Part shown: positions 1 to 486 of the stretch, one piece after another | How positions within the stretch are numbered: the stretch's first letter is position 1 | Layout: each line of letters starts with the position of its first letter | Assembly (NCBI RefSeq): GCF_003334765.1 | Contig: NZ_QOWT01000121.1 | Reading direction: 5' to 3' (one strand) | Length of the DNA: 486 nt | DNA from: Escherichia coli | GTDB taxonomy: Bacteria > Pseudomonadota > Gammaproteobacteria > Enterobacterales > Enterobacteriaceae | Notes under the pieces: model-generated | What the model saw: only the letters and a program-made list of their open reading frames with translations | What the model was told of the DNA's origin: nothing | Database searches by the model: none | Translations under genes and position numbers: made by a program

Positions 1-486
1 GAAGCTGCGCAGCGTTTCCCGGTGCAGGCGGTCGCGGGTGTACTCCACCAGCGGTGTGTCGCCGAGTTTCATGCCTGCCAGGTAACCGCTGCCGTAGGTC
101 AGCCATTCCACGGCGGGCAGGCTGTCCGGTATACAGCGGTTCGCCAGCCCCTGCGCGTTGTACGCATGTCTGGTCTCATGCTGCCAGAGCAGTGCTTCCG
201 TCTGCGGGTGATGCACCGTCTGACGCTCACCGGTCAGCCGGCCTTTCTCATCATACCTGTAATGCACCGCCACCCGGTGCCCTTCGCTGATATGGCTGAT
301 GTCTGTCAGCCAGCCACGTTCGTCATACTGCCACCGCTCTGCGGTTTCACCCTTCACGGTGCGGTGCGTGAGGCGGTCTGCTTCGTCATAGTGCCAGTGG
401 GTGACCAGACCCTCATCCTCGCTGCGGATAAGTTTGCCGGTCAGGTCGTGGTGATAACGCTGTGTGCGGCCGTCAAAGCCGGTTTC
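1..486 (-). CDS. Rhs-family YD-repeat protein, internal core fragment (partial at both ends; polymorphic toxin scaffold)
   Basis: Seen in sequence: reverse-complement frame with codons at +484-486 down to +1-3 has no stop in 162 codons, while the other two minus frames hit stops within the first 4 and 15 codons (tga). Translation: ETGFDGRTQRYHHDLTGKLIRSEDEGLVTHWHYDEADRLTHRTVKGETAERWQYDERGWLTDISHISEGHRVAVHYRYDEKGRLTGERQTVHHPQTEALLWQHETRHAYNAQGLANRCIPDSLPAVEWLTYGSGYLAGMKLGDTPLVEYTRDRLHRETLRSF. It contains repeated Y-D-x-x-G-R/W-L motifs (WQYDERGWL, YRYDEKGRL, HWHYDEADRL, RYHHDLTGKL) at the spacing expected of Rhs/YD repeats, and codon choice is enterobacterial (ctg, ggc, cgc, acc). Established knowledge: the peptide closely resembles the conserved core of E. 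coli-type Rhs proteins as I recall them. I cannot tell which paralog or species from memory, so no gene symbol is given. Confidence 0.9.
187..270 (-). repeat. YD-repeat unit (peptide-level), near-canonical YRYDEKGRLTGE
   Basis: Residues 73-100, AVHYRYDEKGRLTGERQTVHHPQTEALL. This is the best match in the window to the R-Y-x-Y-D-x-x-G-R-L consensus. The YD dipeptide is encoded at +250-255 (atcata on +), 72 nt from the neighbouring YD. Boundaries are approximate. Confidence 0.7.
271..336 (-). repeat. YD-repeat unit (peptide-level), WQYDERGWL
   Basis: Residues 51-72, RWQYDERGWLTDISHISEGHRV. The YD dipeptide is encoded at +322-327 (gtcata on +), 63 nt from the YD of the neighbouring unit. Boundaries are approximate. 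Confidence 0.65.
337..408 (-). repeat. YD-repeat unit (peptide-level), HWHYDEADRL
   Basis: Residues 27-50, LVTHWHYDEADRLTHRTVKGETAE. The YD dipeptide is encoded at +385-390 (gtcata on + = tatgac on -). Boundaries are approximate. Confidence 0.6.
409..477 (-). repeat. YD-repeat unit (peptide-level), variant RYHHD...LTGKL
   Basis: Residues 4-26 of the minus-strand translation, FDGRTQRYHHDLTGKLIRSEDEG. Fits the Rhs repeat consensus G-x(3)-R-Y-x-Y-D-x(2)-G-R-L with the second Tyr replaced by His. Boundaries are approximate. Confidence 0.6.

Follow-up and report, generated by a model that had tools for sequence, protein, structure and literature searches.

The locus: an internal segment of an rhs core gene

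The window, by which we mean the whole 486-nt stretch of DNA that was analysed, could be read on its minus strand through 162 codons in one frame, with zero stops. The rhsA gene of E. coli K-12 MG1655, annotated there as 'RHS element protein RhsA' (1,377 aa), matched its DNA at 100% identity. So did the rhsB gene of K-12-derived and other strains, so that the assignment to one of the two genes is not unique; the E. coli K-12 RhsA/RhsB core protein (NF041261) was the same in sequence, without a difference. The window almost certainly lies inside the E. coli K-12 Rhs core gene, read on the minus strand, and encodes seven consecutive beta-hairpins of the YD sheet. The features are as follows; residues are those of the window translation unless RhsA is named.

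1..486, minus strand: internal segment of the rhsA/rhsB core ORF, RhsA residues 667–828, open throughout
415..465, minus strand: YD unit 1, residues 8–24, turn D14-L-T-G-K18 between strands (Pfam RHS_repeat 14–46; DSSP of the model)
355..408, minus strand: YD unit 2, residues 27–44, anchor Y33-D34, turn DEADR (D34–R38) (Pfam; DSSP of the model)
286..348, minus strand: YD unit 3, residues 47–67, anchor Y54-D55, turn DERGW (D55–W59) (Pfam RHS_repeat 54–88)
211..279, minus strand: YD unit 4, residues 70–92, anchor Y78-D79, turn DEKGR (D79–R83) (Pfam; model)
127..192, minus strand: predicted unit 5, residues 99–120, anchor Y109-N110, turn NAQGL (N110–L114) (model; sequence score)
64..111, minus strand: predicted unit 6, residues 126–141, short G132-S-G134 turn after Y131 (model; orthologue conservation)
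1..57, minus strand: predicted unit 7, residues 144–162, turn D152-R-L-H-R156, anchor R151-D152 (model; orthologue conservation)

Against NF041261 RHS_core, a curated equivalog with a cutoff of 2000 bits, the window scored 340.6 bits (model positions 675–836) and the full RhsA 2647.1 bits (residues 1–1247 on model 1–1261). The full protein also matched TIGR01643 YD_repeat_2x (137.5 bits) and TIGR03696 Rhs_assc_core (83.2 bits), and contained 12 PF05593 matches at E<=0.001, the RHS_repeat matches being scattered across residues 318–981. At its N-terminal end were a literal PAAR (residues 5–8) and DUF6531 (46–123). PF03527 (1143–1179), the core/tip junction of the form DPxG-x18-DPxG (DPIG...DPLG, 1221–1246) and the PxxxxDPxGL autoprotease motif (PVTNTDPLGL at 1238) all fell outside the window. 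The GC content was 58–66% in the rhsA core versus 33–47% downstream. This is the classical Rhs pattern, in which a conserved core rich in GC gives way to a variable, AT-rich tip and the genes downstream (PMC2935791).

The first-pass annotation of this DNA had reported a periodicity. A plus-strand feature or an RNA element, such as the 78-aa ORF at 54–290 or a structured RNA, might in principle lie behind it, and such an ORF was indeed present, as was a sub-threshold Rfam match to sR32 at 210–258 on the minus strand. Only the minus frame, however, was open from end to end, annotated and matched by the curated equivalog model, and chance ORFs are expected on the plus strand opposite a gene of 62% GC. 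The plus-strand ORFs were short and were set aside as artefacts of reading the antisense strand of a GC-rich gene. The sR32 match, the only one from Rfam, scored 16.3 bits versus a gathering score of 40 bits (E 0.05); it is far under the threshold, sR32 is an archaeal C/D-box family, and the match was judged to be due to chance. We regard an origin of the periodicity on the plus strand or in an RNA as extremely improbable.

Similar DNA was widespread: among 5,426 complete E. coli genomes it was present in 3,882, in a median of 3 copies per genome. When the DNA of rhsA (MG1655) and rhsB (strain ER1709) was aligned, the ~2.1 kb that include the window had one differing position, after which the similarity broke off abruptly where the core gives way to the tip. 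The window is part of a dispersed, multi-kb DNA repeat. The near-identity of rhsA and rhsB is the substrate of the unequal crossover between them, from which the family took the name 'rearrangement hot spot' (PMC2935791).

The annotation of ER1709 gives rhsB as a pseudogene with a frameshift, and several database homologues of the window (P0041, P0069, P0079 and P0117) were frameshifted translations. Together, these suggested frequent decay, or assembly errors, in the repeated rhs genes. Downstream of MG1655 rhsA lay yibA (HEAT repeat), yibG (Sel1 repeat) and an Imm57 immunity gene with a frameshift, and interleaved with these were two pseudogene fragments, both partial, of the 'RHS repeat-associated core domain'. 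This array looks like the displaced orphan toxin tips and immunity genes of Jackson et al. 2009 (PMC2935791).

Repeated words and the level of the repeat

PMC10684867 and PMC2935791 cite Feulner et al. 1990 for the YD (Rhs) repeat of E. coli rhsA. The YD-repeat feature is thus already known, and it is an ordinary property of a well-annotated gene. Three YD-encoding hexamers had been noted in the window, spaced 72 and 63 nt apart, and their positions proved exact: ATCATA at 250–255, and GTCATA at 322–327 and 385–390. On the minus strand these read TAT GAT and TAT GAC, and all were in frame, encoding Y78-D79, Y54-D55 and Y33-D34, respectively.

The 8-mer CCGGTCAG had also been noted twice, 207 nt apart. 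Both copies were found where they had been placed and both were in frame, encoding L84-T85-G86 (230–237) and L15-T16-G17 (437–444). The distance was correct, but its reading as three repeat units was not, as units 1 and 4 are separated by 65 aa (195 nt). In unit 1 the LTG comes directly after the anchor (H13-D14-L-T-G, +2 to +4), in unit 4 after the turn (Y78-D79-E-K-G-R-L-T-G, +6 to +8). The two tripeptides are therefore 4 residues out of register and occupy non-homologous positions of the repeat. There were 8 repeated 8-mer pairs in the window, versus 3.0 expected from base shuffles and 4.5 from codon shuffles (p = 0.05–0.13). The CCGGTCAG pair is in frame by coincidence, does not exceed what chance predicts, and is weak evidence of a repeat.

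One of its copies overlapped a near-palindrome, GCTCACCGGT/ACCGGTCAGC (225–238, centre ACCGGT), which lies inside the coding sequence and gave no indication of a function.

That short words recur by chance in a GC-rich coding sequence, and that no true repeat lies behind them, is thus a valid account of the 8-mer pair. Extended to the whole pattern, this account could also draw on the lack of any single significant lag inside the window (see below). The anchors, on the other hand, were not what shuffling produces. At least three YD dipeptides occurred in 1.6% of residue shuffles, but four copies of [YH]Dxxx[RKW]L, in the window HDLTGKL, YDEADRL, YDERGWL and YDEKGRL, in 0 of 20,000. Over the whole of RhsA, Y[DN]xxGx[LIVM] was seen 9 times versus 0.11 expected. 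Profile matches, a 21-aa period (z 6.8) over the core, a hairpin model and fold matches, all described below, concurred against chance. For units 1–4 chance is refuted, and as a general explanation it has practically no prospect of being right.

With fixed-lag autocorrelation, no lag was significant in the 162-aa protein of the window (maximum z 2.9, versus a 95% shuffle bound of 3.1), nor in the window DNA (best lag 63 nt, z 2.2 versus 3.0). This is because the unit lengths vary, being successively 20, 21, 24, 31, 22 and 20 aa. Over RhsA residues 300–1000, the protein autocorrelation peaked at 21 aa (63 nt; z 6.8) and 42 aa (z 6.2). The period of 'about 63–72 nt' given in the first-pass annotation fits three of the six spacings, but their full spread is 60–93 nt.

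The same spacings might be taken for a true nucleotide tandem repeat, a minisatellite-like array of 63–72 nt units formed by slippage or unequal crossing-over, of which the protein pattern would be a by-product. Three 24-nt copies at 233, 305 and 368 (spacings 72 and 63 nt) were in fact 67–75% identical; they lie at the YD codons. However, TRF at a minimum score of 30 found zero tandem repeats in the window. The self-comparison of the nucleotide sequence gave no units of high identity: the best off-diagonal windows were 18/24 (75%), 27/45 and 34/60 (57%), at the level of codon shuffles, none of which was beaten (p = 0.06–0.14). Head-to-tail copies of high nucleotide identity, as in a minisatellite, were thus not found in the window, and the unlike unit lengths (see above) also speak against such an array.

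In register, units 1–4 were 33% identical in amino acids, with a mean BLOSUM62 score of +25 versus a background of -15 +/- 10. Their nucleotide identity was 47%, made up of 59% at the first codon position, 50% at the second and 32% at the third; the background for window pairs, over all nucleotides, was 29%. Such a vanishing of the similarity at the third position is what marks selection on the protein. We consider a nucleotide tandem repeat a most improbable source of the pattern. The first-pass annotation had ascribed the periodicity to YD repeats in the protein and not to tandem repetition of the DNA; TRF, the codon positions, and the profile and structure results below all agreed with it.

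Profile matches and predicted structure

The first-pass annotation had counted seven units that should align to a YD-repeat profile. The Pfam model RHS_repeat (PF05593), which spans roughly two units, matched residues 14–46 (5.3e-05; units 1–2) and 54–88 (4.4e-04; units 3–4), and TIGR01643 scored 19.9 bits in the window at a cutoff of 15.8. Residues 89–162 matched no YD profile, and units 5–7 alone missed the thresholds; in the full RhsA, a profile-silent gap ran from 755 to 858. Thus units 1–4 aligned as supposed, but unit 5 was marginal and units 6–7 were recognised by structure only. As repeat units, the putative units 5–7 rest on the predicted structure.

Among 1.84 billion representatives, searched exhaustively, 10,837 relatives were found at E<=0.001, and 131 listed relatives were re-scored locally. 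There were 84 giant YD-repeat proteins (bacterial, 2,000–5,000 aa), the repeats of which matched units 1–4 at 8–23 places per protein. About 600 of their 620 matched stretches covered query residues 11–80 and fewer than 10 extended past residue 121; residues 89–162 were almost never matched. In Rhs-core-sized proteins the whole query was matched, at the orthologous place. By this distribution, units 1–4 are generic YD repeats, and residues 89–162 are specific to this position of the Rhs core.

A first AlphaFold model, built on a shallow enterobacterial alignment, was confident for residues 5–120 only, with units 6–7 at pLDDT 29–45. A second model, of RhsA 647–908, was built on 17 homologous segments that lie at the orthologous position (33–80% identity to the query). 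Its mean pLDDT was 92, with no low-confidence segment, and it consisted of beta-hairpins throughout. By DSSP, the turns of the seven window hairpins began at D14, D34, D55, D79, N110, G132 and D152, and the hairpins were joined by the links EG, KG, EG, HPQTEA, DSLPA and GD. Repeated beta-hairpins, as in shells of the Rhs/teneurin type, had been anticipated, and these were obtained.

The model also defined the individual units. Unit 1 has H in place of Y in its anchor (H13-D14), and after unit 4 the connecting loop is longer (HPQTEA, 93–98). Unit 5 had canonical geometry in the model while scoring under the profile thresholds; by sequence, it was the best-scoring of the non-canonical positions (z 2.7). 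In unit 6 the GSG turn was shortened, and YD was not recognisable by sequence (z 0.3). Unit 7 had been read as YTRDRL, with its turn at Y149-T150. The model placed the turn at D152 and the anchor at R151-D152, and with this register its mean score against units 1–4 rose from z 0.8 to z 2.0, so the earlier register was abandoned.

Ahead of unit 1 lies the loop GFDGR (residues 3–7; 472–480, minus strand), a five-residue turn versus the two-residue links between other units. Its F4, D5 and G6 were at least 90% conserved in the orthologues.

When the model was compared with the PDB by Foldseek, the top 42 matches were all Rhs, Tc-toxin BC, or teneurin or teneurin-like shells. The best was Tse5 of Pseudomonas aeruginosa (8cp6; E 6e-16, 32% identity), the shell of a T6SS Rhs effector with 40 YD beta-hairpins. 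A search by sequence only had also aligned query residues 1–160 with residues 577–731 of Tse5, the orthologous position (E 9.6e-21). The YDxxGRL hairpin logic is common to both. Tse5 is unlike RhsA in its overall identity (~32%), its N-terminal region and its toxin. The Tc-toxin BC cocoons (YenB/YenC2, 4igl; TcdB2-TccC3, 4o9x and 6h6g) and the teneurin YD shells (6fb3, 7bam) show the same spiral sheet of YD-repeat beta-hairpins, with Foldseek E values of 1e-8 to 1e-10 but only 11–16% identity. Their domain contexts differ from that of RhsA, the former being a two-chain BC fusion and the latter a eukaryotic adhesion receptor, and neither has an orthologous counterpart of units 5–7. As modelled, the window units are consecutive YD-type beta-hairpins of an Rhs/teneurin-type shell.

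This agrees with what has been described for solved shells. The beta-hairpin shell has been solved in many homologues, including that of PMC10684867, and an Rhs core made wholly of beta-hairpins has been described (bioRxiv 10.1101/2024.02.26.582050). In the Tse5 barrel, the 40 hairpins have the consensus YDxxGRLV, in which DxxGR is the turn and Y points towards the cavity; YDxxGRL[I/T] is given as the hairpin motif, and Y is often swapped for H, R, W or F, and D for N, S, L or Q (PMC10684867).

We hold it almost certain that each unit in the window is made of a first strand whose last residue is an inward-facing aromatic (Y or H), a turn of the form D-x-x-G-R/K, a second strand starting with L and a short link containing G, and that selection acts on the few residues that determine the fold. 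With so few residues under selection, the DNA keeps only a loose rhythm, of 60–93 nt (mode 63 nt, or 21 aa), carried by codon positions 1 and 2. By analogy with the solved shells, the hairpins would belong to one uninterrupted sheet, wound as a spiral into a closed shell that surrounds the C-terminal toxin, and the toxin would be released through the aspartyl autoprotease motif at the junction of core and tip. Encapsulation of the toxin, autoproteolysis and delivery to target cells are inferred here from the solved homologues (PMC10684867; bioRxiv 10.1101/2024.02.26.582050).

Conservation of units 6 and 7 and its meaning

The units had been described as becoming more degenerate toward the low-coordinate end. 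This description was misleading, since units 6–7 turned out to be the most conserved part across the Rhs-core orthologues. In a sample of the reference and 14 such orthologues (33–44% identity), 12 of 42 columns in units 6–7 were at least 90% conserved, versus 7 of 115 in units 1–5. Y131, G132 and G134 of unit 6, and R151, D152, H155 and E157 of unit 7, were invariant. The segment WLTYGSGYLAGMKLGDTPLVEYTRDRLHRETLR (residues 121–162; window 1–126, minus strand) missed all YD profiles despite the highest conservation in the window.

The motif of this stretch can be written W-L-T-Y-G-S-G-[YH]-L-x-G ... [ET]-R-D-x-L-H-R-E, and Tse5 contains it too, as WLTYG(S/P)GHLHG...ERDxLHRE. Its conservation from E. 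coli to Pseudomonas Tse5, together with its absence from the generic giant YD proteins, suggested that units 6–7 are specialised and not decayed YD repeats. They may form a functional site of the Rhs shell, a reading that we offer tentatively and hold to be possible but less than probable. Such specialised units could be a seam, a contact of the toxin or plug, or a folding nucleus. There is no mention of the conserved stretch in the structural literature on Rhs shells cited here.

These results indicate that a weak DNA rhythm of 60–70 nt can be purely the signal of a protein fold, and that exact 8-mer recurrences in a GC-rich window of 486 nt are at chance level. They indicate also that repeat units which appear 'degenerate' can be the most constrained ones. 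The invariant YGSGHL...ERDxLHRE stretch, specific to the Rhs core, is a mildly interesting by-product of the analysis.
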